In this document: positions 774 through 14,695 of the stretch, piece after piece | How the letters are laid out: every line of letters starts with the position of its first letter | How positions within the stretch are numbered: position 1 is the first letter of the stretch | Assembly (NCBI GenBank): GCA_045545475.1 | Contig: JAZQAZ010000050.1 | Location: forward strand, 1-14,695 | DNA length: 14,695 nucleotides | Direction of reading: 5' to 3' | DNA from: Clostridia bacterium | Lineage (GTDB): Bacteria > Bacillota > Clostridia > CAKSNL01 > HGM11501 | The notes under the pieces: generated by a model | What the model was told of the DNA's origin: nothing | Databases searched by the model: none | What the model saw: the letters and a program-made list of their open reading frames with translations, nothing else | Made by a program: the position numbers and the translations under genes

Positions 774-1673
774 TTATTTGAGCTGACTTTTCCTGGTTTG
801 AGATATATAGATATTACGGTATTCTTTTGGAGTCATTCCTGTTTTTTGCTTGAAAAATCGGCATAGGTAGCCACTGTCACAATAACCCATTTTTTCTGAT
901 ATTTCATCAAGCGTAATTTTTGAATCATGAAGGAATGATTTTATACAATTTATTTTGTGAATATTCTTGTATTCCACAGGCGATATTCCGGCATAATTTC
1001 GGAAAAGGCGTTCGTAATGGCTGATACTTATGTTGTGGCTTGCGGCAATGTCTTTAATGCTTTTTGCGGGCGATGAACACTCTTCAAGATATTTTATGCT
1101 GTTTTCGATAATGCTTATATCCGAGTAGCTATTTTTTTCTATAAGGCAGTTACTCGCTATTGTGTTAAATATGTCATATGCGGCAGTGTATACTGACAAT
1201 GGCAATGAATGTTCAGTATTAAATGCATCAATCAAAGATAGAAATAGATTTCTATACAGCGACGAGTAGCGTGTGGTAACAATCATAACATTTTTGCTAA
1301 AAAAGATGTGATCGCCACTGTCTTGTGTACATATAAAAGCTTTTTTGGGAGTGTCTCCCCTGTGTACATCTATACAACTTAATGTAAATTCAAATAAAAG
1401 ATTTTCCTGGAAGTTGTCATTTCCCGACGGAGAGTTTTCCCAGACATACTGACACCCCTGAGGTATGTAAACAAGAGTTCCGTGAGGAATATTCAACGGA
1501 GGCAGATTATTTTGATAACAAACGCCGGTGGTGTTTGAAAAGAACAAAAGCGCATCTGTTTGGCGCGGAGCAGACATTGTAAAATTTGTTTTTCCGCTGC
1601 TGATCTGCCTGCTTGCGAAAATGTTTGATATATTGAAAAAATATCGGTTAAGTTCAGAAAAATCAAGAAGCAT
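774..1673 (-). CDS. AraC/XylS-family transcriptional regulator (299 aa)
   Basis: C-terminal double HTH (SIKDIAASHNISISHYERLFRNYAGISP ... EISEKMGYCDSGYLCRFFKQKTGMTPKEYR) and a cupin-like N-terminus. Start moved from 1688 to the ATG at 1673 because GGAGG (1686-1682) lies 8 nt upstream. Confidence 0.93.
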   Translation of the reverse strand: MLLDFSELNRYFFNISNIFASRQISSGKTNFTMSAPRQTDALLFFSNTTGVCYQNNLPPLNIPHGTLVYIPQGCQYVWENSPSGNDNFQENLLFEFTLSCIDVHRGDTPKKAFICTQDSGDHIFFSKNVMIVTTRYSSLYRNLFLSLIDAFNTEHSLPLSVYTAAYDIFNTIASNCLIEKNSYSDISIIENSIKYLEECSSPAKSIKDIAASHNISISHYERLFRNYAGISPVEYKNIHKINCIKSFLHDSKITLDEISEKMGYCDSGYLCRFFKQKTGMTPKEYRNIYISQTRKSQLK

Positions 1674-1714
1674 TTTGAATACCTCCAAGATATAATGGTT
1701 TAATTGTTTTCACA

Positions 1715-1891: not shown

Positions 1892-3163
1892 TTGAGTAAG
1901 AAAATTTCTGTTGCAATACTTGGTTCCGGTTCGCGCGGATGTGCGTTTGGCCAGGAAGTGCAAAACGATAACGAGCGTTATGAACTTTCGGCTGTTTGTG
2001 ATATAAATCCCAAACAGCTTGCAAAAGCAAAAAAGCTTTTTAGTCTTTCTGACGAACAAATATTTTCAGATGAGGAAAGCTTTTTTTCGGAAAAAAGGGC
2101 TGATTTAATGGTTATTGCCACACATGACAAGTACCATGCTCGCCAATGTGTTCGAGCCATGAAAATGGGATATGATGTGTTTATGGAAAAACCAATCAGC
2201 GATTCAAGGGAAGAAATCTATGATTTGCTTAAAACACAAAAAGAAACAGGTAAAGTCGTTATGGTTTGCCATGAGCTCAGATATGGTCCTGCGTTTGATA
2301 AATTACACGACCTGATTATCGACAATGTTATCGGGGAGGTGGTAGCAATCGATGCCATGGAACGTGTAACATATTGGCATCAGGCTCAAGCCTATGTCAG
2401 AATACAATCGGAGGTTAATGATGTTGCACATCCGACGATACTTGCAAAATGCAGTCATGATTTGGATTTGCTGCACTATTATGCAGGGGCGGAATGCGAT
2501 ACTGTATCATCTGTCGGAGATCTGAAATTTTTCAGAATTCAAAATGCGCCGAAGGATTCAACGGAGCGGTGTTTGGAGTGCCCTCATGTCGACACCTGTG
2601 CTTTCAGTGCAAAAAGGATATATATAGACAGATGGAAGGAAAGAGGATGTCCTGAATTTGTTTGGCCGTTCAATAAGGTAACCTTAAAAATTCCTACGGA
2701 TGAGCAGGCTCTTTATGAGGGGCTGCGTAATACTTGTTTTGGTAAATGCGTTTTCCGATGCGGTGTGGAAAGCAATAAACACGTTGTTGATCATCAGTTG
2801 GTACAAATGATGTTTAAAAACGGTGTTGCGGCTACTTTGAAAATGGTGTTTGCCGGCGAGTCCGGAAGACGAATTAACATTTTCGGTACACACGGCGAGT
2901 TGCTTTTGGATGAGAGAAATGGAACTATTGAAGTATATCGCTACGGAGAGAAGAAAGAGGTTATAGAATTTAAAACCTTGATGGAGAACGGTCATAGTCA
3001 CGGAGGCGGAGATGTCCTAATAATAAAAGATTTGTATTCTGTTTTGAACGGGGGTGGGGAAGGCAGAACCTCGCTCATGGACTCTATAGAGGCTCATTTA
3101 ATGGGAATCAGTGCAGAAGAATCAAGATTAAATGGCGGAATTACGGTGAAGGTTCATGAATGA
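1892..3163 (+). CDS. Gfo/Idh/MocA-family NAD(P)-dependent oxidoreductase (423 aa)
   Basis: Rossmann motif ILGSGSRG, EKPI motif, KCSHDLD catalytic segment, C-terminal HGGGD. TTG start at 1892 preferred because AAGGAGG is at 1878-1884. Confidence 0.92.
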   Translation: MSKKISVAILGSGSRGCAFGQEVQNDNERYELSAVCDINPKQLAKAKKLFSLSDEQIFSDEESFFSEKRADLMVIATHDKYHARQCVRAMKMGYDVFMEKPISDSREEIYDLLKTQKETGKVVMVCHELRYGPAFDKLHDLIIDNVIGEVVAIDAMERVTYWHQAQAYVRIQSEVNDVAHPTILAKCSHDLDLLHYYAGAECDTVSSVGDLKFFRIQNAPKDSTERCLECPHVDTCAFSAKRIYIDRWKERGCPEFVWPFNKVTLKIPTDEQALYEGLRNTCFGKCVFRCGVESNKHVVDHQLVQMMFKNGVAATLKMVFAGESGRRINIFGTHGELLLDERNGTIEVYRYGEKKEVIEFKTLMENGHSHGGGDVLIIKDLYSVLNGGGEGRTSLMDSIEAHLMGISAEESRLNGGITVKVHE

Positions 3164-4349
3164 TTGCATTATTTTAAAAAATTGTAGGATCATAGGAGAC
3201 AGATCTATCCGGGAAGACAGCAGTATTTTGATTCAAAATGGTATTATTGCCGATATTAGTGATATTGCCGGGTTTGAAGCAAGTGAGTATGCAAAAGTAT
3301 ATGATATGAAGGGTAATTATGTCAGCGCAGGGTTTGTGGATATCCATACGCACGGTGGAGGCGGTGCTGATTTTATGGACGCGACAGACGATGCGTTCGA
3401 CACCGCTTTAGGATATCAGCTTGAAAACGGAGTTACGGGGGTGGTTGCAACCTCTCTGACTGCGGCATATGAGGATATATGTTGTTTTATGGACAAGGCA
3501 AGAGAATATATGGAGGTTCCGCACACCAAGAAGTCAAAGCTTCTTGGTGTGCATTTGGAAGGACCGTTTATATCTGTGAAAGGCTGCGGCGCACAAAATC
3601 CCAAATATCTTATGAATCCGAATAAAGATTCTTACAGCTTTATTATTAAAAACAGAGATATAATCAAAATAGTTACAATTGCGCCGGAATTGGACACGGA
3701 CGGGAGCATGACGCGGGAGCTTACTGAAAACGGCATTTTGGTGTCGGGAGGTCATGATGACGGTGCATATCCGGAATTTGTTCCTGCATTTAAGTCGGGT
3801 TTGAAACACATGACGCATATATATTGTGCAATGTCGGGTTTTGGAACAAAAGCAGGAGTCAGAGAAATAGGACTTAGGGAATATGGGCTTATGACAGATA
3901 ACGTCACCTGTGAAATTATTGCGGATAATATTCATATAACTCCCGAAATGGCAAGGTTTATTTTAAAGTATAAGGGGGCTGATAATGTTGCGGTGGTATC
4001 GGACTCGCTGCGATGCGCCGGTATGCCGGCAGACGGACGCTTATATAATCTGGGGTCAAAATACGACAGTGCATCGTTGAAAGTAAAGGTTTCCGACGGG
4101 ATTGCAATGCTTGCTGATGGCAGTAAGTTTGCCGGAAGCATAACAAGTGTGCATAAAATGGTGAAAAATTTGATAAATGCCGGTATTCCTGTTGTGGATG
4201 CGTTTAAGACGGGAACGTCGGTGCCGGCACGTATTATAGGTGAAAAGAAGATAGGCAGCGTTAAAAAAGGTTTTGCTGCTGATCTTTGTGAGCTTAATGA
4301 AAATTTCGATATTGTTTCGGTCTTTTTGGACGGAAAGAAAGTAAAATAA
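3156..4349 (+). CDS. nagA: N-acetylglucosamine-6-phosphate deacetylase family amidohydrolase
   Basis: GFVDIHTHGGGG, GVHLEGPF, VTIAPE, THIYCAM, IADNIH, VSDS, FAGS motifs. Overlaps the upstream gene by 8 nt. Confidence 0.9.
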   Translation: MNDCIILKNCRIIGDRSIREDSSILIQNGIIADISDIAGFEASEYAKVYDMKGNYVSAGFVDIHTHGGGGADFMDATDDAFDTALGYQLENGVTGVVATSLTAAYEDICCFMDKAREYMEVPHTKKSKLLGVHLEGPFISVKGCGAQNPKYLMNPNKDSYSFIIKNRDIIKIVTIAPELDTDGSMTRELTENGILVSGGHDDGAYPEFVPAFKSGLKHMTHIYCAMSGFGTKAGVREIGLREYGLMTDNVTCEIIADNIHITPEMARFILKYKGADNVAVVSDSLRCAGMPADGRLYNLGSKYDSASLKVKVSDGIAMLADGSKFAGSITSVHKMVKNLINAGIPVVDAFKTGTSVPARIIGEKKIGSVKKGFAADLCELNENFDIVSVFLDGKKVK

Positions 4350-4364
4350 ATTTTATGAAGGGAA

Positions 4365-5162
4365 ATGAACATTATGGAACACAATAAAATTAAGCTTAGA
4401 GTTTTAGAAAATGATGATGCAGTCAATTTGGATATGGCGCTTGATATGTTGGCGGAAATTATGAAAAATAATGAAAGGGGAAAGCGAACAGTATTTATTG
4501 TACCGGTTGGACCTACAAAGCAGTATTCGATTTTAGCGGCGATGGTAAATAAGCTTAATATTTCATTAAAAAACGTATGGTTTTTCAATATGGACGAGTA
4601 TCTCATATCTCCGACAGAAGCAATTTCGTCCGAACATTTTCTGAGCTTTAAAAAGCGCATGAATGACGAATTTTATGCGCGGGTTGATGAGGCGCTTATA
4701 ATGCCGAAGGAACAAAGGCTGTTTCCGATTCCGGGAAGAGAAAAGGAATATGATGAGCTTTTAAAATCTCTCGGTGGTGCGGATGTGTGCTATGGGGGAC
4801 TCGGCATTAACGGTCATATTGCGTTTAATGAGGCGGCAGAAAAGGATGATCCGATAACCTGTGAGGAATTTGCAAATCTCAGCACACGCGTGCTCCCGGT
4901 CAGCCGTGAAACAATAGCCATAAACGGAGCCGCATATCTACATGGAGATATTATGGCAATGCCGAAATGGTGTATCACAATAGGCATGAAGCAGATAATG
5001 GAATCAAAAAGAATTTATTTATCGACAGGTGCGGCATGGCATCCGGGAATATTAAAGCATGTACTTAACGACAAACCGCAGCCGCAGATACCGTCAACCA
5101 TTTTGCAAAAACACGGGAACGTATTATTCTGCACAAATAAAAGTATTGCGGAACTGATTTAA
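4365..5162 (+). CDS. Glucosamine/galactosamine-6-phosphate isomerase (NagB-like) family protein, atypical subgroup
   Basis: FFNMDEY, GGLGINGHIAFNE, ITIGMKQI, PSTILQKH motifs. Has PVGPT where canonical NagB has ATGST/PTGST. Confidence 0.85.
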   Translation: MNIMEHNKIKLRVLENDDAVNLDMALDMLAEIMKNNERGKRTVFIVPVGPTKQYSILAAMVNKLNISLKNVWFFNMDEYLISPTEAISSEHFLSFKKRMNDEFYARVDEALIMPKEQRLFPIPGREKEYDELLKSLGGADVCYGGLGINGHIAFNEAAEKDDPITCEEFANLSTRVLPVSRETIAINGAAYLHGDIMAMPKWCITIGMKQIMESKRIYLSTGAAWHPGILKHVLNDKPQPQIPSTILQKHGNVLFCTNKSIAELI

Positions 5163-5263: not shown

Positions 5264-5299
5264 GTTATTGAAGAGCGGATGTTGGAAATGGGGATTTGT

Positions 5300-5653
5300 A
5301 TGAAGTGTTTTCAAATCGATTTAAATGAGCTTCCTAAGGTTGCGTTGTGGGGAAAAAAAGACAGAACAATGCTTCCGGCACGCTTTGTGGCAGAAAGCCT
5401 CGGTGCTACTGTTACCTGGGATGAAGCAAGCAGAAAGGTTATTATTGCTAAAAACAGCCTTTTAATTGAAATTACCATTGACTCAGATACTGCTTTGGTA
5501 AACGGCAGAATTACGCCCTTGGATTCTCCGGCGTTTATAGAAAATGACAGAACATATATGCCTCTTCGTTTTATAGTTGAAAATCTCGGAGCGACTGTTA
5601 TCTGGGATAAGTCGGAGCAGAAAGTGACCATTACTGTTAAGTTTCCTGTTTGA
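5300..5653 (+). CDS. Copper amine oxidase N-terminal (stalk) domain protein, probably a fusion remnant (117 aa)
   Basis: Two internal repeats typical of this domain: DRTMLPARFVAESLGATVTWD and DRTYMPLRFIVENLGATVIWD. No signal peptide or other domain. ATG at 5300 follows GGGG; 5279 is an alternative start. Confidence 0.75.
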   Translation: MKCFQIDLNELPKVALWGKKDRTMLPARFVAESLGATVTWDEASRKVIIAKNSLLIEITIDSDTALVNGRITPLDSPAFIENDRTYMPLRFIVENLGATVIWDKSEQKVTITVKFPV

Positions 5654-5711: not shown

Positions 5712-5750
5712 AAGCGACCTTTTGAATCAAAAAATTAAGAGGTCGCTTTT
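5712..5750 (+). terminator. Intrinsic terminator
   Basis: AAGCGACCT (5712-5720) pairs with AGGTCGCTT (5740-5748); the stem extends inward and is followed by a T-rich tail. Confidence 0.7.
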
Positions 5751-5795
5751 GTGTAAGTTTTGTCGTGTTTGTCTATTTAAAAAAATATAAGTATA

Positions 5796-5804
5796 TGTTA
5801 TGAT
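5796..5804 (+). promoter_or_regulatory. Extended -10 element for the large catabolic operon
   Basis: TGtTATGAT about 40 nt before the start at 5845. The -35 position reads TTTAAA (weak), compatible with activator dependence. Confidence 0.45.
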
Positions 5805-5844: not shown

Positions 5845-6900
5845 ATGAAAAAAGTGCGTCTTGATGAACTTAAGGCTTTCTCCGTAAAGGCACTCGTTAA
5901 AGTGGGAGTAAGTGAAGAAAATGCAGAAATTATAGCCGATGTTTTAATGACAACTGATACTTTCGGTGTTTTAACACACGGGACAAAAAATCTGGGGCAG
6001 TATATAGATAAAATGAAGGCGGGCGGATTAGATGCTGAAGCCGAGCCATCAATAGTGAGAGAAGGACCTGCCTGGGCAATCGTAAACGGAAACAAGGCGG
6101 CAGGTATGGTTTCCGGATACAAGGCGATGAAGATGGCTATCCAGAAAGCTAAAAAAGTCGGTATTGCATATGTGGGAGTTAAAAACAGCTGTCACTTCGG
6201 TGCAGCAGGCTTCTATGCAAATCTGGCGGCAAAGGAAGGACTCATAGGCATATCTATGAGTAATGCTGATCCGGTTATTGCAGTTCCCGGAGGAAGCAAA
6301 AAAGCAATCGGTACTAATCCCTTTTCTTTTGCAGCACCGACTGGCGACGGAAAGAGTGTATTTTTAGATATTGCATTAAGTAATGTTGCGGCACTTAAGG
6401 TCATAATGGCGCAGGAGAAGAAACAGGAAATTCCCGACACCTGGCTGGTTGATGAAGAGGGCGTTCCTACGAAGGATGCTTACAAATTCCCGAAAAATGC
6501 AAGTCTTCAGCCTATGGGAGCACACAAGGGCTACGGCCTTGCGGTGCTGGTCGAAATTCTTGCTTCGGTAATAACCGGTGCGGGTATGCTTTCTGAGATA
6601 GCGAGCTGGAATCTGGATCTTGCATCCACCAATAATGCGGGACACGCATTTATTGCAGTTGATGTAGCTCAGATGATTGGCACAGATGAGTTTAATGCAA
6701 GAATGAAACAGGTCTCAGACGAGCTTAAAAACGGCCCAAAGGCAAAGGGTGCGTCAAGAATATTTATGCCCGGTGAAATGGAATGGGAAAAGAGAGATAA
6801 AGCTCTTGCTTCGGGTGAAATTGAAATCACCGATGCTATGGTGGCATCCCTTACAAAGCTTTCTTCCGATACAGGCGTGGAAATTAACATTTACGAATAA
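5845..6900 (+). CDS. Ldh_2-family (AllD/YiaK/ComC-like) 2-hydroxyacid dehydrogenase
   Basis: GVLTHG, NSCHFGAAG, IGTNPF, LDIALS, PMGAHKGYGL, MPGE motifs; GGAGG RBS. Confidence 0.92.
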   Translation: MKKVRLDELKAFSVKALVKVGVSEENAEIIADVLMTTDTFGVLTHGTKNLGQYIDKMKAGGLDAEAEPSIVREGPAWAIVNGNKAAGMVSGYKAMKMAIQKAKKVGIAYVGVKNSCHFGAAGFYANLAAKEGLIGISMSNADPVIAVPGGSKKAIGTNPFSFAAPTGDGKSVFLDIALSNVAALKVIMAQEKKQEIPDTWLVDEEGVPTKDAYKFPKNASLQPMGAHKGYGLAVLVEILASVITGAGMLSEIASWNLDLASTNNAGHAFIAVDVAQMIGTDEFNARMKQVSDELKNGPKAKGASRIFMPGEMEWEKRDKALASGEIEITDAMVASLTKLSSDTGVEINIYE

Positions 6901-6930
6901 TTAAATTTAATATATGAATGGAGAATTATC

Positions 6931-7584
6931 ATGGATAAAACAATGTACGGCATAATCAAAACAACAGCAATCTGCCCCATTATGGTGGCACCCGATCCCG
7001 ATTTTGCAGCTGATGCGGCAAAGGCAATTGCAGAGGGCGGTCTTCCCGTTTGTGAAGTTCTTCTTCACAGAGACGAGCATTCTGTTACAAGAATAAAGAA
7101 CATCGCTAAAAATGCACCCGAGGTAATTGTCGGTGCAGGTACTGTTATATCTTTAAGAGATGCCCAGGAGGCATTAGATGCCGGTGCAAAATTCTGTGTA
7201 GCTCCCGGCTTTGTTCCCGAGGTTGTTGAATTTTGCTTAAAGAACAACTTATCCATCCTTCCCGGATGCACAACAGCTTCCGAAATTTCAATGGCACTTA
7301 ACTACGGAATAAACATATTAAAGTTCTTCCCCGTATATCAGATGGGCGGAGTAGACACCCTTTCCCAGTACTATTACGGCCCCTTCGGTAAGGTTGAATG
7401 GGTTGTAACCGGCGGTCTTAACGGCAAGAACTATTTAGACCTCATCAAGTTCAACAGCGTGCTTGCGGCAGGCGGCGACTGGATGTTTGCCGAGAATAAT
7501 GCAATCAACGACAAAAACTACGATGCAATCGTTGAAAATATGAGAAGAACAATAAAGGATTCTCTCGCTGCAAGAGCGAAATAA
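6931..7584 (+). CDS. eda: KDPG/KHG aldolase (Eda) family, divergent
   Basis: VGAGTV, LPGCTTASE, Schiff-base Lys in LKFFP (K131), TGG and catalytic E42. GGDW replaces the usual GGSW. Confidence 0.85.
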   Translation: MDKTMYGIIKTTAICPIMVAPDPDFAADAAKAIAEGGLPVCEVLLHRDEHSVTRIKNIAKNAPEVIVGAGTVISLRDAQEALDAGAKFCVAPGFVPEVVEFCLKNNLSILPGCTTASEISMALNYGINILKFFPVYQMGGVDTLSQYYYGPFGKVEWVVTGGLNGKNYLDLIKFNSVLAAGGDWMFAENNAINDKNYDAIVENMRRTIKDSLAARAK

Positions 7585-7600
7585 GAAAGTGGGGCTTTTT

Positions 7601-8377
7601 ATGAGTTGCTCATTTGATTTTAAGGGTAAAACCGTTCTGATAACAGGTGCCGAGCGGGGAATTGGTCTTGAAATTGCAAAGGGCTTTGCAAAAAGAGGTG
7701 CAAATATTGTTATCGCAGGCATTATGGATGAGGAATTTCCCAATGCTGAAAAGGAAATAACAGCCCTTGGTGCAGAATGCTTTTGCATCCACACCGATGT
7801 GGCGGATGAAGAATCTGTTATAAATGCAGTTAGTAGTGCCTGGGACAAGTTTACAAAAATTGATATTCTTGTAAATAATGCAGGCATCAACAAGCTTGCA
7901 CCGGCAGAGGAAATGCCTCTTTCTACCTGGCAGAGAATTATGGATGTAAATTTAACGGGTACATTTTTAATGTGCCGTGAGGTGGGAAAAAGGATGCTTT
8001 CTGCGGGCGGCGGAAACATAGTTAACGTTGCCTCTATGTCGGGCCTTATCGTAAACCCCCTTCCGCAGACACAGTGTGCATATAACAGCTCCAAGGCGGG
8101 CGTTATTATGCTTACAAAGGTGCTTGCCAACGAATGGGCAGAGCGAGGCATAAGAGTAAACGCCATTGCTCCGGGCTTTACGGAAACACCCCTTACTGCA
8201 AAGAGACTTTCCGTGCCCGACGATCCTGCGGTTAAAAAATGGATTGGCGGAACACCTATGGGACGCGTGGCTCAGCCTTCCGAAATGGTGGGCCTTGTAT
8301 TATACTTTGCAAGCGACTTATCTACCTTTACAACAGGAACCTGCGTGCCCGTTGACGGCGGATATACAGTATTATAA
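7601..8377 (+). CDS. Short-chain dehydrogenase/reductase, polyol dehydrogenase/ketose reductase-like (258 aa)
   Basis: TGAERGIG, VNNAG, ASMSG, YNSSK, RVNAIAPG, VDGGY. ATG at 7601 preferred over GTG at 7589 because GGGG lies at 7591-7594. Confidence 0.92.
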   Translation: MSCSFDFKGKTVLITGAERGIGLEIAKGFAKRGANIVIAGIMDEEFPNAEKEITALGAECFCIHTDVADEESVINAVSSAWDKFTKIDILVNNAGINKLAPAEEMPLSTWQRIMDVNLTGTFLMCREVGKRMLSAGGGNIVNVASMSGLIVNPLPQTQCAYNSSKAGVIMLTKVLANEWAERGIRVNAIAPGFTETPLTAKRLSVPDDPAVKKWIGGTPMGRVAQPSEMVGLVLYFASDLSTFTTGTCVPVDGGYTVL

Positions 8378-8388
8378 GGAGAATGAAA

Positions 8389-9237
8389 ATGAAAAGCGTA
8401 AAAGATACTTTCAAAATATATAACGGTGTTGAAATTCCCTGCATGGGACTCGGCACCTGGCAGTCCCCCGACGAAACGGCGAAAAATGCGGTGCTTGCCG
8501 CACTTTCCCACGACTATCGCCTTATTGATACAGCTGCGGCTTACGGCAACGAAAAGGGTGTAGGCGAGGGAATAAAGGCAAGCGGACTTAAGAGAGAAGA
8601 AATTTTTGTTACAAGCAAGCTCCGCAACGCGGACCATGGCTACAAGGCGACGCTTGAGGCTTTTAATCTCACTATGGAAAAGCTTGACCTTGAGTATTTA
8701 GACCTTTATCTTATTCACTGGCCCAACCCCATTCAGTACAGAACACACTGGGAAGAGGCAACGGCCGGAACCTGGAAGGCTTTTGAGGAGCTTTACGAAA
8801 AGGGAAAAATCAAGGCAATCGGCATAAGCAACTTCCTTCCTCATCACATTGAAACACTTATGAAAACCGCAAAAATAAAGCCTATGGTAAATCAGCTTAA
8901 ACTATGCCCCGGCGTAACCCAGGACGAAACCGTTGACTATTGCAAAAAGCAGGGTATTGTGGTTGAAGCATACAGCCCCTTCGGAACTGGTATGATATTC
9001 GGCAACGAGGGTATGAAAAAGCTTTCTGCAAAATACGGAAAAACCGTTGGTCAGCTTTGTCTTCGCTGGTGCTTAGATAAGGAGTTTGTTTCCCTTCCCA
9101 AGTCGGCAAATCCCATGAGAATAAGAGAAAATGCAGAAATCTTTGACTTTGAGCTTTCAAAGGAAGACATTGACTTTATATCAAATCTTAAGGGAGTTTG
9201 CGGAGAAGCTCCCGACCCCGATAATATAATGTTCTAA
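8389..9237 (+). CDS. Aldo/keto reductase, 2,5-diketo-D-gluconate-reductase-like
   Basis: GLGTW and the catalytic tetrad in IDTA, YGNE, TSKL and IHWP, plus IGISNF and PKS. AGGAG (8377-8381) fits the ATG at 8389 better than the one at 8383. Confidence 0.93.
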   Translation: MKSVKDTFKIYNGVEIPCMGLGTWQSPDETAKNAVLAALSHDYRLIDTAAAYGNEKGVGEGIKASGLKREEIFVTSKLRNADHGYKATLEAFNLTMEKLDLEYLDLYLIHWPNPIQYRTHWEEATAGTWKAFEELYEKGKIKAIGISNFLPHHIETLMKTAKIKPMVNQLKLCPGVTQDETVDYCKKQGIVVEAYSPFGTGMIFGNEGMKKLSAKYGKTVGQLCLRWCLDKEFVSLPKSANPMRIRENAEIFDFELSKEDIDFISNLKGVCGEAPDPDNIMF

Positions 9238-9248
9238 GAGTTGATTTT

Positions 9249-10712
9249 ATGAGAATTAAAAACAAGGATGCTTTATCCTCCCACGGAAATATCGAGGGAA
9301 GAAAAATTGTAAGTGAGCTTCTTGATGCAGGGCTTGACTCCATCGACCCTTACTTAAGGGTAAAAAAGCTTATGGAGGTAAAAGAAGGTAAATTAATCTT
9401 TCATACCGAGGGCTTTGAAATGAAGGAGGATCCCCATTCGGGTGCACTTTCCTACAATCTTTCTGATTTTGACAGAATATTTGTAATCGGTGCGGCAAAG
9501 GGAATTCAGAGAGCCGCCCTTGCAATAGAAGAGGTGTTGGGAGATTATCTTACCGAAGGTCACGTCATAGGAAAGCACGGGGAAGATGTTATTTGCAAAA
9601 AAATCGGCGTGACATTGGCAGGACACCCCGTTCCCGACGAATACTGCATTGAAGGCTGCAGAAAAATTGAAGAAATGCTTTCTGATGTTACGGAAAAAGA
9701 CCTTGTCTTAACCGTTTTCGGCTCGGGCTGCGGCTCCCTTTTCACCTATCCTGCTGAGGGGATAACTATGGAGGATATTTCAAGGTTTACCCATATGATG
9801 CAGATTGAAAAGGGCGTTCCCACAAGTGACTTAAATCAGATAAGAACCCATATTGACCGTTTTAAGGGCGGAAGAATAACAAGGATGATAAAGAAGGCCA
9901 CCATAGTAAATATGGTAACGGCGGACCCATCCAAAATGTCAACCCCGGTTTTAAGGGTAAACTACTTTGAAATGCTCTGTCATAACACCTTTTTCCCTAC
10001 GGTTGCAACGGCATCAACCTATAAAGACTGCCTTGACATCATAAAAAAGTGGGATGCCTGGGATGAAACCCCGGAGTCTATAAAAAACCACCTTTTAGCG
10101 GGAGACAGTCATAACGAAAATATGTCGGTGGATGAATACGAAAGCTTTAACGCAAGATTTTTTGGTCTTGTTTTCAAGGATTCCACCATCTATCCGGCGG
10201 TAAGGGAAAAGGCAAAGGAGATGGGACTTCCTTGCATAATGCTTTCAGAGTATATGGAAGCGGAGGCAAGGGAAGCAGGCTTTGTGGACGGAAATTTAGC
10301 CCTTTGCTGTGAAAGGCTGGGCGAGCCCTTCCGTGGCCCCATTGTACTTATGTCATCAGGCGAAAATGTGGTAACCGTCGGCAAGGAAAGCGGCATCGGC
10401 GGAAGAAATCAGGAATATGCCATCGGCGCGGCAATGAAAATTGCAGGAAGCAAAAAGGTTGTAATCGGCGCTGTTGATACGGACGGTACCGACGGCCCCG
10501 GGGGATTTTCATATCCTGGTGCGCCTGAATGTTTATCCGGTGCCGTGGTTGACGGCTATACCTTGGAAGAAGCGAAAGAAAAAGGAATAAATCTCTGGGA
10601 TGCGCTTAAAACCCACGGAACAAGCGAGCCCTTGTGGAGACTTGATTCCGGCGTATGGGCGGAAAAGAGCATTTCGGCTCTTGATCTCAGAATAATTTTG
10701 ATTGGAGAATAA
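9249..10712 (+). CDS. Class II (MOFRL/DUF4147) glycerate-2-kinase-like protein, divergent
   Basis: VIGAAKG, AGHPVPDE, RFKGG, GGRNQE and DTDGTDGP motifs; several other motifs are altered. Confidence 0.88.
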   Translation: MRIKNKDALSSHGNIEGRKIVSELLDAGLDSIDPYLRVKKLMEVKEGKLIFHTEGFEMKEDPHSGALSYNLSDFDRIFVIGAAKGIQRAALAIEEVLGDYLTEGHVIGKHGEDVICKKIGVTLAGHPVPDEYCIEGCRKIEEMLSDVTEKDLVLTVFGSGCGSLFTYPAEGITMEDISRFTHMMQIEKGVPTSDLNQIRTHIDRFKGGRITRMIKKATIVNMVTADPSKMSTPVLRVNYFEMLCHNTFFPTVATASTYKDCLDIIKKWDAWDETPESIKNHLLAGDSHNENMSVDEYESFNARFFGLVFKDSTIYPAVREKAKEMGLPCIMLSEYMEAEAREAGFVDGNLALCCERLGEPFRGPIVLMSSGENVVTVGKESGIGGRNQEYAIGAAMKIAGSKKVVIGAVDTDGTDGPGGFSYPGAPECLSGAVVDGYTLEEAKEKGINLWDALKTHGTSEPLWRLDSGVWAEKSISALDLRIILIGE

Positions 10713-10714
10713 AT

Positions 10715-12016
10715 ATGTACGGTACAATTATTAAATCTGTAAGGGCACACCAGGTTTATACAAACCGTGGAAAGCCCGGTGTTGAAGTAATAGTAACCAC
10801 AGAAAACGGAAGCGAAGGAAGGGCAATGTGCACCTCGGGCGTATCGATCGGTACCCACGAGGTTGACTTTACCTTTGACGGCGGCACAAAGTTTGGCGGC
10901 AAAGGCGTAACAGGTGCGGCTAAAAGGGTTGAAGAGGTAATCGCTCCCGTAATTATCGGAATGGATTCAGCCCGTCAGGCAGAGGTTGATGCGGCAATCC
11001 TCGGTATTTGCCCCGATGCAAAAATCCGCCTTGGCGGAAATGCGGTTGCGGCAACAAGTGCGGCTGTGCTTAAAGCAGGTGCAGCATCGCTCGGCATTCC
11101 CTTATACCGTCATATCGGCGGTGCAGGTGCAATGTATCTTCCCGTTCCCGGCGTTGCGATGGCGGCAGGGGATGAGCGCTACGGCGGAGGAATCACCACC
11201 CCTGGCGGAAAACCCACAATGTCAATTATGGCATACGGCTTTGATAAGTTTTCCGATGCATCTTATGCATGCTGGGAAATTCACACACGCTGGGCGGAAA
11301 AAATGAAAAAGCTCTTTGGCGGTCTTCCAAATATCCGCGACTTTATCTCCATTCCTGCGGGAATTTTCAAAAGCGACAAGGAAATCTGGGAGGAAATGCT
11401 GAAAACCGTTATTGAAGCGGGATACGAAGGCAAAATCGGCTTCCAGATGGACGTTGCGACGGATACATATCACAACAAAGAAGACGATAAGTACTACGGT
11501 CTTTTCGATAAGGAGCCCAAGACCAAGGAACAGCTTTACGACTTCTATATGCAGATTATAAAGGACTATCCCTTTGTTATAATCGAAGATCCCTTTAATG
11601 AGGACGACTATGATACAACTGCCGCATTTACAAAGGAAAGCGGAATTCAGATAGTAGGGGACGACCTTTTTACCACCAACCCCAAAAGAGTGGCTCACGG
11701 AATAAAGAAGGGCGCGGCAAACACCGTTCTTCTCAAGGTTAATCAGGTGGGCTCCATTTCCGAGGCTCTTGAAATGATACAATATGCCTATAAGTTCGGT
11801 TACGGAATTATGCCTTCCGACAGCCGTGGCGAGGGCGAAACAATTGCAGACTATGCGGTGGGTATAAATGCAGGCTCAATCCGTGAAAGTGCCATAGGCG
11901 CAAGAGGAAACCGCTTCCTTGAAATTGAGGAAGAGCTTGGGGCATCTGCAAAATTCATCGGTGCACGCGGCCTTAAGGGCGAAAGAAACCTTCTGCGTGC
12001 CGACGGATTATTATAA
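10715..12016 (+). CDS. Enolase-like protein with remodelled active site
   Basis: Colinear with enolase (SGVSIGTHE, GKGV, LGGNA, PLYRHIGG, LPVP, MDVA, IEDP, QIVGDDLFTTN, LLKVNQVG, IADYAVG) but lacks NGGxH, QEF, GDEGG, SHRSGE and QIKTG. Confidence 0.88.
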   Translation: MYGTIIKSVRAHQVYTNRGKPGVEVIVTTENGSEGRAMCTSGVSIGTHEVDFTFDGGTKFGGKGVTGAAKRVEEVIAPVIIGMDSARQAEVDAAILGICPDAKIRLGGNAVAATSAAVLKAGAASLGIPLYRHIGGAGAMYLPVPGVAMAAGDERYGGGITTPGGKPTMSIMAYGFDKFSDASYACWEIHTRWAEKMKKLFGGLPNIRDFISIPAGIFKSDKEIWEEMLKTVIEAGYEGKIGFQMDVATDTYHNKEDDKYYGLFDKEPKTKEQLYDFYMQIIKDYPFVIIEDPFNEDDYDTTAAFTKESGIQIVGDDLFTTNPKRVAHGIKKGAANTVLLKVNQVGSISEALEMIQYAYKFGYGIMPSDSRGEGETIADYAVGINAGSIRESAIGARGNRFLEIEEELGASAKFIGARGLKGERNLLRADGLL

Positions 12017-12027
12017 GGAGGTATCTC

Positions 12028-13458
12028 ATGTTTAAACAGTATATAAACGGAAAACTGGTTGACGGTAATGGCAGGGAAATGCCTGTATATAACCCTGCAA
12101 CGGGAAAGGTAATTGACTCTGTGGGCTGCGCAGATGCATCTCAGACAAAGGAAGCGCTCATCGCAGCTGCGGAAGCTTTTAAAACCTGGTCTAAAACAAG
12201 CGTAAATGAAAGAGCAGCGTGGCTTTACAAGCTTAAGGAAGCCTGCACGGCTGAAAGAGATTATTTAATCGAGCTTGTAGCTTCAGAATCCGGAAGACCG
12301 TATGCAGCTGCCTGCGGCGATGTTGACTGGCTTCTTACAAGCCTTTCCTTCTATGCCGAGGAAGCAAAGAGAATTGAAGGCGAAGTAATTCCTCCCTTAA
12401 ACGTGGGCGGAAAGCTTAACTATCAGATAATCACAAAACAGCCGGTGGGTGTAACCGTTGGTCACCTTGCCTGGAACTATCCTTTAGGTAATGCCAGCAT
12501 AAAGCTTGCTCCCGCCATAGCATCAGGCTGTACCTGCATCATAAAGCCTTCCTCCGAAACACCCCTTGCAACACTTTATGTGGGCGTTATCGCAGAAAAG
12601 ATAGGCTTCCCGAAGGGGGTATTAAACATTCTTTCAGGTCCCTCTTCCGAGGTTGCAAAAACCCTTAACGAAAGCACCATTCCGAGACTTATTTCATTAA
12701 TCGGATCCTATGAAACGGGACTTAAGCTGATGGAGCAGGGCGTAACAAGCTTAAAGAAATATTCTCTTGAGCTTGGCGGAAACGCACCTGTTGTGGTTAT
12801 GCCCGATGCTGACCTTGACGAAACAGCGGCAAACATCGTTGCAAAAAAGGTTGGCTTTGCAGGACAGACCTGCGTTAACTATAACAGAATTTACATCCAC
12901 GAAAGCATTTATGATGTAATGTGCGAAAAGGTTAAAAGTGAGCTTTCAAAGGTTAAACTCGGCTCCTGGAAGGACGAGGGTTATATAATGGGTCCCGTAA
13001 TAAACAACGAGGCAAGGGACAGAATGCTTTCCCTTATTGAGGATGCAAAGGAAAAAGGCGCAAAGCTTGTTATGGGCGGAGAAGTTCCGGAAGAATTTTC
13101 CGAGGGAAGCTTTATAACACCTGCGCTTCTTATTGATGTAACTGACGATATGCGCGTTTCAACAGAGGAAATCTTCGGCCCCATCATTCCTCTTCAGCCC
13201 TTTAAGACCTTGGATGAGGCAATTAAAAAGAGCAACAATACAATCTTTGGCTTGTCCGCTTATTTCTTCGGACACAATGCAAAGGAAATGAGCAGATATT
13301 TTGAAAACGTTACAGCAGGCGAATTTTTCGTAAACGGCGGTATCGGAAGCGAATTTTCACCCCATTCAGGTGCAAAGCAGTCGGGTATCGGATGCGACAA
13401 GTCCAAGCATTCACTAGAGGAATACTACGATATCAAGTTCCTGTCTATGATACCGTAA
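12028..13458 (+). CDS. NAD(P)-dependent aldehyde dehydrogenase (GabD/SSADH-like)
   Basis: AWNYP, IKPSSETP, catalytic Glu in LELGGNAP, catalytic Cys in GQTCV, EEIFGP; AAGGAGG RBS. Confidence 0.94.
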   Translation: MFKQYINGKLVDGNGREMPVYNPATGKVIDSVGCADASQTKEALIAAAEAFKTWSKTSVNERAAWLYKLKEACTAERDYLIELVASESGRPYAAACGDVDWLLTSLSFYAEEAKRIEGEVIPPLNVGGKLNYQIITKQPVGVTVGHLAWNYPLGNASIKLAPAIASGCTCIIKPSSETPLATLYVGVIAEKIGFPKGVLNILSGPSSEVAKTLNESTIPRLISLIGSYETGLKLMEQGVTSLKKYSLELGGNAPVVVMPDADLDETAANIVAKKVGFAGQTCVNYNRIYIHESIYDVMCEKVKSELSKVKLGSWKDEGYIMGPVINNEARDRMLSLIEDAKEKGAKLVMGGEVPEEFSEGSFITPALLIDVTDDMRVSTEEIFGPIIPLQPFKTLDEAIKKSNNTIFGLSAYFFGHNAKEMSRYFENVTAGEFFVNGGIGSEFSPHSGAKQSGIGCDKSKHSLEEYYDIKFLSMIP

Positions 13459-13473
13459 AATATCGGAGGATTT

Positions 13474-14454
13474 ATGAGCGAAAAAAAGTATGATCTGATA
13501 GGCTTCGGCGATCCCTTTTTAGACCTTGTGCTGAAAATAGATAAGCTCCCCGAAACAAATACCAACTGTCGCATAAATAAATACGGCTTTCAGGGTGGCG
13601 GAAACGTACCCACAGCCTGCGTCGCATCTGCAAGACTCGGTGCAAAAACGGCGTTAATCGGTTGTGTGGGGGATGATTTATTCGGAAAAGTGGGACTTTC
13701 CGACCTTCAGTATAACAATGTTGACACATCAAAAATGAGTGTACAGAAAGGGAAAAAAAGCAATTTTTCCATCTGTGTGACAGAAACAGCCGTAAACGGT
13801 AAGGAATTTATCAGCACTCCCGGTGACTTTGAGGAAATAAAGACAGGCGAGCTTGATGAAGAATTCTTCAGGTCCACTCGCATTATGCACGTGGCATTAA
13901 TTACCGAAGCTGTGGCAAAGGCCTGCGATATGGTTCATTCCGCAGGCGGAAAAATAAGCGTAGATGCCAATTACTACCGTCCCTATACCTACGACTATTA
14001 CGATAAAATCGACATTTTCATAGGCTCCGAAATGTACTACAATGCATTTTGCGAAGATAAAAAATTAAATCCCGAAAACTTTAAGGAAAATATGGAGCTT
14101 TTAAAAAGCTACGGTCCTGAAATCGTAATATTCACCTTCGGACCTGACGGTTGCAAGGGCGTTTACGAGGATAAATATTTCGATATTCCGGCAATAGATG
14201 TAGATGTGGTTGACACCACCGGTGCGGGTGATGTTTTCCACGGTGCCTTTGATGTATTCTATCTTAAGGGCTTCGATGTGGAAAAAGCGGCACTTTATGC
14301 ATCCGGCGTATCTGCCATAAAATGCACACGCTCCGGAGGAAGAAGCGGAATTCCCACACTCCCGGTGCTTGAAAAATTTATTAAAACCGGTGAAATTGAC
14401 TATACGGAAATAGACGAGCGCGTTGCTCATTATGATAAAGGAATTACGTTATAG
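13474..14454 (+). CDS. PfkB/ribokinase-family carbohydrate kinase, YihV-like C-terminus
   Basis: GGGN...ARLGA...IGCVGDD, DTTGAGDVFHGAF and ASGVSAIKCTRSGGRSGIP; GGAGG RBS. Confidence 0.92.
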   Translation: MSEKKYDLIGFGDPFLDLVLKIDKLPETNTNCRINKYGFQGGGNVPTACVASARLGAKTALIGCVGDDLFGKVGLSDLQYNNVDTSKMSVQKGKKSNFSICVTETAVNGKEFISTPGDFEEIKTGELDEEFFRSTRIMHVALITEAVAKACDMVHSAGGKISVDANYYRPYTYDYYDKIDIFIGSEMYYNAFCEDKKLNPENFKENMELLKSYGPEIVIFTFGPDGCKGVYEDKYFDIPAIDVDVVDTTGAGDVFHGAFDVFYLKGFDVEKAALYASGVSAIKCTRSGGRSGIPTLPVLEKFIKTGEIDYTEIDERVAHYDKGITL

Positions 14455-14464
14455 GAGGTATACT

Positions 14465-14695
14465 ATGCTTGATTACAATGTAAAAATAGGACTTGTTCCC
14501 TTAAGACGTGACTGTACACCCCGTCCCGGTATCTTTAACTGGGAGGTTGCAGAGGAGAGAGGAAGACAGACTGTTGCCTACATCAAGGAGCATTATGCGA
14601 CAGAGCATATAAGCTTTGTTGACCTTAAGGGTGTTATCGATGTTGAAACACTCTGGTCTGAAAACGATGTTGAAAAGGTGGCAGAACACTTTAAG
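14465..14695 (+). CDS. Probable L-fucose/L-arabinose isomerase family protein (partial, runs off the window)
   Basis: Not in the ORF track. AGGAGG (14453-14458), ATG at 14465, then 77 open codons MLDYNVKIGLVPLRRD...SFVDLKGVIDVETLWSENDVEKVAEHFK. The KIGxxPxRR...FVD pattern resembles firmicute fucose-isomerase-like N-termini (from memory). Confidence 0.65.
   Translation, partial: MLDYNVKIGLVPLRRDCTPRPGIFNWEVAEERGRQTVAYIKEHYATEHISFVDLKGVIDVETLWSENDVEKVAEHFK

Follow-up and report, generated by a model that had tools for sequence, protein, structure and literature searches.

Introduction

Which sugar is degraded by an operon that joins an isomerase, a PfkB-family kinase and aldolases to a glycerate-2-kinase-like protein and an enolase-family protein with an altered active site? 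This question is raised by a stretch of 14,695 bases (henceforth the window) that makes up the entire contig C50 of a 2.74-Mb, 50-contig, 95% complete genome of a Clostridia bacterium (NCBI GenBank assembly GCA_045545475.1, contig JAZQAZ010000050.1), in which nine plus-strand genes occupy positions 5845–14695. An original prediction, made from the letters of the sequence, saw here a self-contained pathway resembling the non-phosphorylative Entner-Doudoroff (ED) pathway or sulfoglycolysis and acting on a sugar modified at C6. We find that the operon is a genuine, widely conserved, uncharacterised sugar-breakdown pathway of gut Clostridia. As to its substrate, we tentatively favour a hexose with an anionic, phosphate-like group at C6, degraded by an Embden-Meyerhof-Parnas (EMP)-like route for a 6-sulfo or 6-O-sulfo hexose, and put the probability of this reading at roughly 0.35; a sulfonate, as in sulfoquinovose, would be the most likely C6 group and a 6-O-sulfate ester the next.

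A ten-gene core shared by gut Clostridia

At least nine co-oriented genes with gaps of 2–30 nt and no internal terminator had been described in the original prediction, and this layout was borne out. In a listing of open reading frames (ORFs), the genes encode, in order, an Ldh_2-family 2-hydroxyacid dehydrogenase (Ldh_2), an Eda-type class I aldolase, a short-chain dehydrogenase/reductase (SDR), an aldo-keto reductase (AKR), a DUF4147/MOFRL kinase, an enolase-like protein, an aldehyde dehydrogenase (ALDH), a PfkB kinase and the start of an isomerase truncated at the contig end (Table 1). They are separated by 30, 4, 5, 11, 2, 11, 15 and 10 nt, and Pfam and NCBIfam confirmed all of the predicted family assignments, including the fucose isomerase/SftI-like ninth gene. 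No intergenic terminator was found within 5845–14695 by a terminator scan, whose two weak plus-strand sites in this region (7206–7225 and 12329–12343) are both intragenic; the scan is poorly discriminating, with 19 sites over the whole window versus 14.1 ± 3.3 in shuffles. Judged by its sequence, the operon has a boundary of its own, set off from the upstream unit by a terminator-like hairpin and a promoter-like site, and a GGAGGA ribosome-binding site precedes the ATG of Ldh_2 at 5845.

The isomerase gene is split over four contig ends of the window genome. Identical N-terminal pieces lie at the end of C50 (14449–14695) and, reversed, at C12:1–247; identical C-terminal pieces lie at C8:1–138, followed by an aldolase gene, and at C33:1–138, followed by genes for a DUF4867 protein and a DNA methylase; residues 78–417 are missing from the assembly. 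The assembly has collapsed either two copies of the gene or the versions carried by two strains. Because the contig join past the isomerase is ambiguous, we took the continuation from a relative, the 99%-identical contig L001 of a goat metagenome-assembled genome (MAG), in which the window genes recur at 96–100% identity (PfkB at 93%). PfkB is followed there by a 463-aa isomerase, a class II ketose-bisphosphate aldolase, DUF4867, a 478-aa protein, a DNA methylase and an HTH/M78 pair. The window genome has its own copies of the class II aldolase, 98.5% identical to that of L001 (start of C8), and of DUF4867, at 96% identity (start of C33). Among the genes that the original prediction envisaged downstream, the class II aldolase is therefore present in L001, together with DUF4867, while a sulfoquinovosidase and a TauE exporter are not linked in the neighbourhoods examined. 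The edge of the cluster also differs between the two genomes: L001:16776–20277 carries DUF4867, the 478-aa gene, a DNA adenine methylase, an M78 peptidase and an HTH gene, and in the window genome the methylase (91.6% identical) directly follows DUF4867 and the 478-aa gene gives no tblastn match, which suggests a variable or mobile edge after DUF4867.

Scanning genome contigs with the enolase-like protein returned 61 loci. Their carriers are mostly uncultured Clostridia MAGs (Acutalibacteraceae, Oscillospiraceae, Lachnospiraceae, Blautia, Ruminococcus), joined by one member of the Victivallales, and come from goat, sheep, deer, cattle, pig, bird and human guts. In 51 loci the enolase-like gene has at least 70% identity, and 29 of these loci extend at least 5.2 kb upstream and at least 6 kb downstream (well-flanked loci). 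Ldh_2 and ALDH occur in all 29, and the Eda-type aldolase, AKR, MOFRL kinase, PfkB kinase, isomerase and class II aldolase in 28 each; with the enolase-like anchor, and with or without the SDR, these genes form a ten-gene core. The SDR is found in 20 of the 29 loci, at a variable position within the cluster, and DUF4867 in 13. In 42 of the 45 loci that reach far enough (all but L023, L024 and L034), the gene immediately before the enolase-like one encodes the MOFRL kinase, and the ALDH gene immediately follows it in 42 of 42. Because each core gene recurs in 28–29 of the 29 well-flanked loci, this arrangement is more than chance, and the conserved synteny on which the original prediction hinged is real.

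The enolase-like gene is otherwise rare: it occurs in five of 399 sampled Clostridia genomes and in three of ten genomes of the window's order (at 99% identity), the other seven being without it. GC content is 0.43–0.50 over the operon (window 6000–12500) versus 0.35–0.42 in the first 6 kb and 0.39–0.43 in other contigs. Patchy distribution and GC shift together suggest lateral spread and are consistent with a recent lateral acquisition of the cluster. Of 24 sequencing runs listed, 20 share part of the stretch, none as much as half its words, and most are labelled as metagenomes of the gut or the bovine gut; gaps in this cover carry no meaning. In one study, two metatranscriptome libraries gave contigs that match parts of the operon from the Eda-type aldolase to PfkB at 90–99% identity; as such contigs may include DNA, they do not prove transcription and give no hint of the inducer.

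An enolase paralog with an altered active site

A clue to the chemistry of the pathway comes from a comparison of the enolase-like protein with canonical enolase (EC 4.2.1.11). It contains both enolase Pfam domains, is 38–40% identical to canonical and archaeal enolases and finds its best PDB match in the Methanocaldococcus (M.) jannaschii enolase 2pa6 (257.5 bits), yet it scores below the TIGR01060 cut-off (Table 1). A canonical enolase with all canonical motifs is encoded on contig C29 of the same genome and is 33% identical to the operon paralog. Our alignment has 44 rows, made up of the window protein, the C29 enzyme and 42 ORFs taken from the loci, with about 16 loci omitted in which ORF picking took an antisense ORF; it comprises 38 family rows (53–100% identity), five canonical enolases including that of C29, and one row of a third type (L054). 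Residues are given in yeast numbering, mapped by motif. The Mg2+ ligands Asp246, Glu295 and Asp320 as well as Lys345 are retained in all 38 family rows and in all five canonical rows. Throughout the 38 family rows, in contrast, His159 is replaced by Arg, Glu168 by Thr or Ser, Glu211 by Phe or Met, His373 by Asp, Ser or Glu, Arg374-Ser375 by Ser-Arg, and Lys396 by Arg, with the canonical residues at these sites intact in 5/5 control enolases. The Ser39 loop is kept in the family, with Ser or Ala, whereas the L2 loop now reads RYGGGxTTPGGKP(T/S) and two deletions follow the SHRSGE region; R155, Y156, K166 and P167 are invariant in seven diverse family members. Pairing with a MOFRL kinase in the cluster further distinguishes the paralog from canonical enolase.

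In enolase, Glu211 and Glu168 are needed for the expulsion of hydroxide, and Lys345 takes the C2 proton. The loss of both glutamates speaks for a group that can depart without acid catalysis. By its alignment, the paralog is neofunctionalised, with an active site that is clearly not that of an enolase; most likely it would still form the Mg-stabilised enolate of a 2-phospho acid and eliminate something else, or, alternatively, a new acid may have taken the place of the lost ones. The proposal that dedicated paralogs are needed for a C3 fragment still carrying a substituent, made in the original prediction, gains support from a paralog lacking the hydroxide-expelling residues in a genome with a canonical enolase on C29. 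NCBI names the relatives only as 'enolase C-terminal domain-like protein', with two of 120 listed relatives named. In a Spirochaetales MAG, two tandem enolase-like genes stand beside an amino-acid permease (L054:2083–4697), the second of which (36% identity) carries Glu295 to Gln and Lys345 to Arg exchanges and represents a third, more divergent type.

We raise, as a tentative and rather doubtful proposal, that the MOFRL kinase and the altered enolase may act together as a module, not described so far, for desulfonation or desulfation at C3, in which O2-phosphorylation of 3-sulfolactate or 3-O-sulfoglycerate would be followed by β-elimination of sulfite or sulfate to give phosphoenolpyruvate (PEP). 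ComA interconverts PEP and sulfite with 2-phospho-3-sulfolactate. In the ComA/ComB/ComC route of coenzyme M formation, ComA chemistry is thus the reverse of the proposed lyase step; in contrast to ComA and SuyAB systems, the lyase proposed here belongs to the enolase family, and no ComA or SuyAB homolog is present. A full-text literature search for the MOFRL-plus-enolase module gave nothing beyond 2007 work on archaeal glycerate kinase, and a full-text search for a sulfolactate kinase found none. Sulfolactate, enolase and glycerate kinase searched together gave only a general review, and literature searches for fructose-6-sulfate, glyceraldehyde-3-sulfate, 3-sulfoglycerate and tagatose-6-sulfate returned nothing relevant. 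In its section on the fate of sulfonated products, a January 2026 review contains no kinase or enolase route for sulfolactate.

A possible route for sulfosugars

From the families of the core enzymes we infer a substrate, every reaction and a leaving group, as follows. The SftI-like isomerase, helped by DUF4867, would convert the 6-substituted hexose to a ketose, the PfkB kinase would phosphorylate C1, and the class II aldolase would cleave the product to dihydroxyacetone phosphate (DHAP) and a 3-substituted lactaldehyde. The ALDH would oxidise this aldehyde to a 3-substituted lactate, its reduction by the AKR instead serving as a redox valve, and Ldh_2 and the SDR would adjust the C2 configuration via the 2-keto acid. 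The MOFRL kinase would then phosphorylate O2 of the C3 acid, and the enolase-family protein would take the C2 proton by means of Lys345 and the Mg2+ site and expel the C3 substituent as sulfite or sulfate, yielding PEP. All six carbons would enter central metabolism. By analogy with known enzymes (isomerase, kinase, aldolase, sulfolactaldehyde (SLA) dehydrogenase, SLA reductase and a two-dehydrogenase sulfolactate racemase), precedented roles can be suggested for nine of the ten core enzymes.

The upper part of this scheme resembles the sulfo-EMP2 and hybrid sulfo-EMP pathways of Firmicutes and Enterobacteria, which likewise combine a FucI-like isomerase, DUF4867, a sugar kinase, a class II aldolase and a GabD-like ALDH (in those systems SqvD/SftI, SqvB/SftX, YihV or SqiK, SqiA, and SlaB/GabD or YihU). 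For four genes, those of the PfkB kinase, class II aldolase, DUF4867 and isomerase, the closest characterised relatives are sulfoglycolysis enzymes, which lends the sulfosugar reading support. The best PDB match of the PfkB kinase is the sulfofructose kinase YihV (7ag6; 98 bits versus 77.4 for the next), to which it is 29% identical. The full-length isomerase of L001 matches, within NCBIfam, SftI only, at 107.7 bits versus a cut-off of 700; the cut-off of the SftI/SqvD sulfoquinovose isomerase equivalog is not reached, and there is no Pfam and no PDB sequence match. DUF4867 of L001 scores 225 bits in Pfam and matches SqvB (9GYY; 150 bits) as its only PDB hit; together with a class II aldolase, DUF4867 is one of the two hallmarks of Firmicute sulfoglycolysis clusters.

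The class II aldolase is closest in the PDB to HpSqiA (8Q58, 182.6 bits) and YaSqiA (8Q57, 179.3 bits), versus 163.5 for the next match. SqiA lacks the partner-subunit Arg for a 6-phosphate, having Ala257 there, and holds the sulfonate through backbone amides of a loop. The cluster aldolase has no 6-phosphate-binding Arg at the SqiA Ala257 position, where fructose-bisphosphate (FBP) aldolases bind the 6-phosphate, and it has a conserved Ser/Thr/Asn-Arg at the sulfonate-binding loop of SqiA. For Ldh_2, the best NCBIfam match is sulfolactate dehydrogenase (257.7 versus a cut-off of 500), the function of the Ldh_2-family enzyme ComC, followed by ureidoglycolate dehydrogenase (242.3 versus 356); its PDB matches are 1v9n (230.5 bits), 1vbi (210.5) and ComC 2x06 (209.8). 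Two dehydrogenases acting jointly as a racemase are also a known device, in SlcC/ComC/SuyAB systems.

Genomic surroundings point in the same direction. In a Blautia MAG (L048), a TRAP transporter (DctP, a DctQ-sized ORF and DctM) stands co-directional with and just before the isomerase gene. TRAP systems mostly transport organic anions, and the L048 transporter supports an anionic substrate. Of the 29 well-flanked loci, seven have a NagA homolog linked to the core and eight a NagB-like gene. Enzymes of the NagA and NagB types normally require a 6-phosphate; no hexosamine kinase or phosphotransferase system (PTS) is in view at the loci bearing them, and this linkage supports a phosphate-like C6 group. 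The carriers of the cluster match the families that dominate rumen sulfoquinovose degraders, i.e., Acutalibacteraceae, Oscillospiraceae and Lachnospiraceae, which counts for the sulfosugar reading, as do a NIR_SIR-domain gene (a 320-aa ORF, possibly AsrC) and a TauE gene elsewhere in the window genome.

A considerable number of observations weigh against this reading. The sulfonate-binding triad of YihV, K27/N109/R138, is not conserved in 32 cluster kinases (the window protein and 31 orthologs), in an alignment that is uncertain at 29% identity. Succinate semialdehyde dehydrogenase (SSADH) and RlGabD have two anion-binding Arg, with His and Asn at the same sites in Bacillus SlaB; aligned to E. 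coli GabD (3jz4), the cluster ALDH has Ile and Gly there, and an ALDH without the Arg pair better fits a neutral aldehyde. The hint at sulfonate enzymes given by the original prediction accordingly gained no sulfonate-specific evidence. A C17 paralog, which stands beside IolB and a PfkB kinase and looks IolJ-like, with a carboxylate substrate, is nearer to the aldolase (57% identity), and the top rank of SqiA may simply mirror which structures have been solved. In the published network, most DUF4867 genes belong to non-sulfo aldose/ketose clusters. The Eda-type aldolase has no step in the scheme, and the invariant Lys166 and Tyr156 of the enolase-like protein could act as an alternative acid for hydroxide.

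Genes dedicated to sulfosugars are also missing from the surroundings. No sulfoquinovosidase, either of the YihQ/SftG-type glycoside hydrolase (GH) family 31 or of GH188, was found in the window, L001 or the examined neighbourhoods. GH31 neighbours at two loci (L013 and L016) were rejected as YihQ-like and are α-glucosidase/xylosidase-like, that of L013 matching YihQ at about 90–106 bits versus 249 for an α-glycosidase; the GFO-family protein of the window was rejected as GH188, reaching 28.9 bits to the GH188 structure 8QC2. Queried with E. coli YihQ, YihS, YihT and YihU, the window genome yields no convincing homolog: the only YihQ match is an α-xylosidase beside xylA/xylB, and the Yih queries otherwise reach PfkB paralogs. 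About 270 neighbour ORFs were annotated, and sulfonate genes, TauE and sulfite reductase included, are absent from them. Of six carrier genomes checked, only four have NIR_SIR, and PF00884 matches in two carriers are ORFs of about 640 aa that are possibly LtaS-like rather than sulfatases. A sulfoquinovosidase of a known kind is no strict requirement, as some rumen sulfoquinovose degraders are without any.

Set beside the sulfo-EMP pathways, the cluster thus differs in the remoteness of its similarities, in lacking the YihV triad and the Arg pair of SLA dehydrogenases, and in having no linked sulfoquinovosidase or sulfonate exporter. It further contains five invariant genes with no counterpart there, encoding Ldh_2, the Eda-type aldolase, the AKR, the MOFRL kinase and the enolase-like protein; known sulfo-EMP pathways excrete 2,3-dihydroxypropane-1-sulfonate (DHPS) or sulfolactate rather than process them further.

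Alternative substrates

An unlikely, though by no means negligible, explanation is that a neutral hexose, perhaps L-galactose or another L-hexose, is degraded by way of glycerate. DHAP and (L-)glyceraldehyde would arise through the isomerase, the kinase and the class II aldolase, and the Eda-type aldolase would supply the same aldehyde together with pyruvate; the ALDH, whose missing anion-binding arginines suit this substrate, would form (L-)glycerate, which Ldh_2 and the SDR or AKR would invert via hydroxypyruvate to D-glycerate. In distant clusters, this inversion would fall to a D-2-hydroxyacid dehydrogenase or a racemase of the LarA-like type. The MOFRL kinase would then yield 2-phosphoglycerate, and a variant enolase, using Lys166/Tyr156 as acid or acting on the other enantiomer, PEP.

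The genes around the core speak partly for this route. Flanking genes differ from locus to locus, CUT1-type sugar ABC transporters adjoin many loci, and neighbours include a RhaM-type mutarotase (five loci), a GalM-type epimerase (three), a GH4 α-galactosidase (four) and a GldA-like Fe-dependent alcohol dehydrogenase (five), while at L050 a canonical L-fucose isomerase adjoins the enolase-like gene; all of these would fit a neutral sugar. ThuA and an EF_0837-like amidohydrolase (four to five loci) are further neighbours, and single occurrences comprise polysaccharide lyase family 8 (PL8, L018), GH28 (L022), GH2 (L020), UxuA (L010), GH10, GH127, a GH63-like protein and an AGE epimerase. Six loci (L009, L010, L018, L029, L036 and L052; e.g., L010:3436–5496) carry, upstream of Ldh_2 and in most cases next to an AraC gene, a cytoplasmic protein of about 686 aa that has no Pfam or NCBIfam match, is grouped by the ESM Atlas with 'six-hairpin glycosidase'/DUF5695 clusters (scores 0.98–0.99) and is a candidate for a dedicated glycosidase of the cluster's sugar.

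Distant relatives of the kinase/enolase-like pair leave glycerate and sulfolactate on an equal footing. A metagenome scan with an alignment of seven sequences gave 78 loci, of which 29 distant ones (at least 4 kb, 47–63% identity) contain an enolase-like ORF in 26 cases and a MOFRL gene in 18. Their neighbours comprise LarA-like racemases (four loci as well as L050 and L051), D-2-hydroxyacid dehydrogenases of the 2-Hacid_dh type (three), Ldh_2 (two), MR_MLE acid-sugar dehydratases (two), FAH-family hydrolases (two), FucI-like isomerases and PfkB kinases, alongside TRAP, TAXI, 2HCT, MFS and Liv-type ABC transporters and an amino-acid permease. None of these is sulfonate-specific, and the context of dehydrogenases, dehydratases and FAH hydrolases also fits glycerate, to the detriment of the sulfosugar reading. 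The recurring logic, i.e., uptake or generation of a 2-hydroxy acid, C2 inversion, 2-phosphorylation and an enolase-like step, fits both acids equally.

What speaks against glycerate is above all the enolase-like protein, in which Glu168, Glu211 and His373 are gone in 38/38 family members, together with the canonical enolase, next to which a second enolase for 2-phosphoglycerate is unneeded. In addition, the MOFRL kinase lies far under the glycerate 2-kinase equivalogs (NF041176, 87.9 versus 550; NF040791, 74.8 versus 670), the TRAP transporter of L048 points to an anionic substrate, and the linkage to NagA/NagB-like genes is hard to square with a neutral sugar.

Anionic substrates other than sulfosugars are conceivable too. 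By analogy with the IolB/IolC/IolJ steps, a hexuronate or amino-uronate might be degraded by an EMP-like route, which we regard as improbable: the isomerase would form a keto-uronate, PfkB would phosphorylate it, and the class II aldolase would release DHAP and tartronate semialdehyde, the latter being reduced to glycerate and entering via the MOFRL kinase, with the Eda-type aldolase as the usual branch for 2-keto-3-deoxygluconate (KDG). The similarity of the aldolase to the C17 paralog, a PfkB match to the IolC profile (93.9 bits), the KduD/gluconate-5-dehydrogenase-like SDR and the TRAP transporter built into the L048 operon fit such a route, as do the neighbouring PL8, GH28, GH2 and UxuA genes and the six-hairpin glycosidase family (six loci), each of these uronate-related neighbours, however, occurring in one or few loci only. 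No role would be left for the ALDH, Ldh_2 and the altered enolase, KdgK and Eda are already present on C17, and no precedent is known to us for a route by uronate 1-kinase and aldolase, on which no specific literature search was made. Like the IolB/IolC/IolJ steps and the Aga pathway (AgaA/AgaI/PfkB/KbaY), the cluster combines a PfkB kinase with a ketose-phosphate aldolase of class II and with an isomerase, be it a cupin or another type, and it shares with the Aga pathway the NagA-like and NagB/AgaI-like genes linked in some loci; unlike them, it is without IolD-, IolE- and IolA-type genes, a PTS and a hexosamine kinase, whereas the Iol and Aga pathways lack the ALDH, MOFRL kinase and enolase-like genes. 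The C17 region itself (C17:64000–75972, L065) carries canonical KdgK and Eda genes and a run of a GlcD-like oxidase, a 356-aa protein, the class II aldolase, a PfkB kinase and IolB (TIGR04378, 244 versus a cut-off of 205), an incomplete module of the inositol type that runs up to the contig end.

A plain archaeal-type non-phosphorylative ED lower branch (KDG aldolase, glyceraldehyde dehydrogenase, glycerate 2-kinase and an ordinary enolase that would be redundant), to which the original prediction had likened the operon, fits the four enzyme families found in one operon and the resemblance of the enolase-like protein to canonical and archaeal enolases, yet it is very improbable, as the ten-gene core has no gluconate or galactonate dehydratase (an MR_MLE dehydratase occurring among the related loci only in L017), the catalytic glutamates of the enolase are lost, the kinase falls far short of the equivalog cut-offs, and the additional, invariant arm of isomerase, PfkB and class II aldolase is ignored. 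The remaining probability falls to a substrate outside the readings listed here.

Other features of the window

Upstream of the operon lies a second unit of sugar-related genes (Table 1). Its first gene encodes a GFO/IDH/MocA protein with weak PDB matches (at most 44 bits) and a 66%-identical homolog in the same position in L016, and its NagB-like gene has counterparts that immediately precede Ldh_2 in L016, L020 and L022. No regulator had been visible to the original prediction, which holds inside 5845–14695; an AraC-family gene is present on the minus strand further upstream, and AraC-type regulators flank many related loci. The short ORF between the upstream unit and the hairpin is probably a remnant outside the pathway. 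Its sole domain, Cu_amine_oxidN1, has dozens of copies in the genome, one of them 96% identical on C28, and larger surface proteins with this domain flank L006 and L009. Positions 1–665 of the window (about 660 bases), which contain strong hairpins at 438–481 and 631–659, match contigs C37, C1, C18, C39, C29 and C7 at 87–96% identity and resemble a dispersed repeat or some small element, mobile or intergenic. An Rfam scan of the window gave no family at gathering score.

Table 1. Annotated features of the 14,695-base window, in order of position.
Feature	Position	Strand	Evidence
AraC-family regulator, divergent from the upstream sugar genes	774–1688	-	Pfam HTH_AraC, HTH_18
GFO/IDH/MocA oxidoreductase, 431 aa	1868–3163	+	Pfam; best NCBIfam iolG, 83.6 bits vs cut-off 355
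NagA-type N-acetylhexosamine-6-phosphate deacetylase homolog	3156–4349	+	TIGR00221, 255.4 > cut-off 225.65
Divergent NagB/AgaI/6-phosphogluconolactonase-family protein	4365–5162	+	TIGR00502, 96.1 vs 236.9; Pfam Glucosamine_iso, 24 < cut-off 27
Short ORF, 124 aa, solely a Cu_amine_oxidN1 ('stalk') domain	5279–5653	+	Pfam, 116 bits
Terminator-like hairpin and U-run, closing the upstream unit	~5712–5754 (hairpin ~5712–5748)	+	-23.9 kcal/mol, z -5.5, equalled by 0/200 shuffles
Promoter-like site before Ldh_2 (TTTAAA, 17-nt spacer, TATGAT, with TG)	5776–5804	+	Consensus scan only
Ldh_2-family 2-hydroxyacid dehydrogenase	5845–6900	+	Pfam, 366 bits
KDPG/KHG-type (Eda-type) class I aldolase	6931–7584	+	TIGR01182, 175.4 > cut-off 156.05
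SDR oxidoreductase, gluconate-5-dehydrogenase/KduD-like	7589–8377	+	NF006070, 253 vs cut-off 279
AKR, DkgA-like	8383–9237	+	NF008598, 242.1 vs cut-off 425
DUF4147/MOFRL kinase (glycerate-2-kinase family), 487 aa	9249–10712	+	Pfam DUF4147, 133.7 bits; MOFRL, 62.8 bits
Non-canonical enolase-family protein	10715–12016	+	TIGR01060, 278.7 < cut-off 300
GabD/SSADH-like ALDH	12028–13458	+	Pfam, 461.6 bits; TIGR01780, 406 vs cut-off 646
PfkB-family sugar kinase	13474–14454	+	Pfam, 132.7 bits
FucI/SftI-like aldose-ketose isomerase, first 77 codons of a 463-aa protein	14465–14695 (ATG 14465)	+	100% identical to the start of L001:13812–15203

Significance

If the sulfosugar reading holds, a branch of a highly conserved glycolytic enzyme would have been recruited for the cleavage of a carbon-sulfur bond or a sulfate ester. 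Gut Clostridia would then possess a new route to ferment abundant dietary sulfoquinovose or sulfated host glycans fully, to sulfite, sulfate or H2S, and single fermenters would use all six carbons of a sulfosugar without a glycyl-radical enzyme, SuyAB or a sulfatase, setting inorganic sulfur free in the gut itself. In current models, DHPS, sulfolactate or isethionate has to be passed on to Bilophila/Desulfovibrio by cross-feeding. Whatever the substrate, a ten-gene operon found in 28–29 of 29 loci, an active site that is not that of an enolase, and a kinase/lyase pair recurring across phyla provide a concrete target for enzymology.

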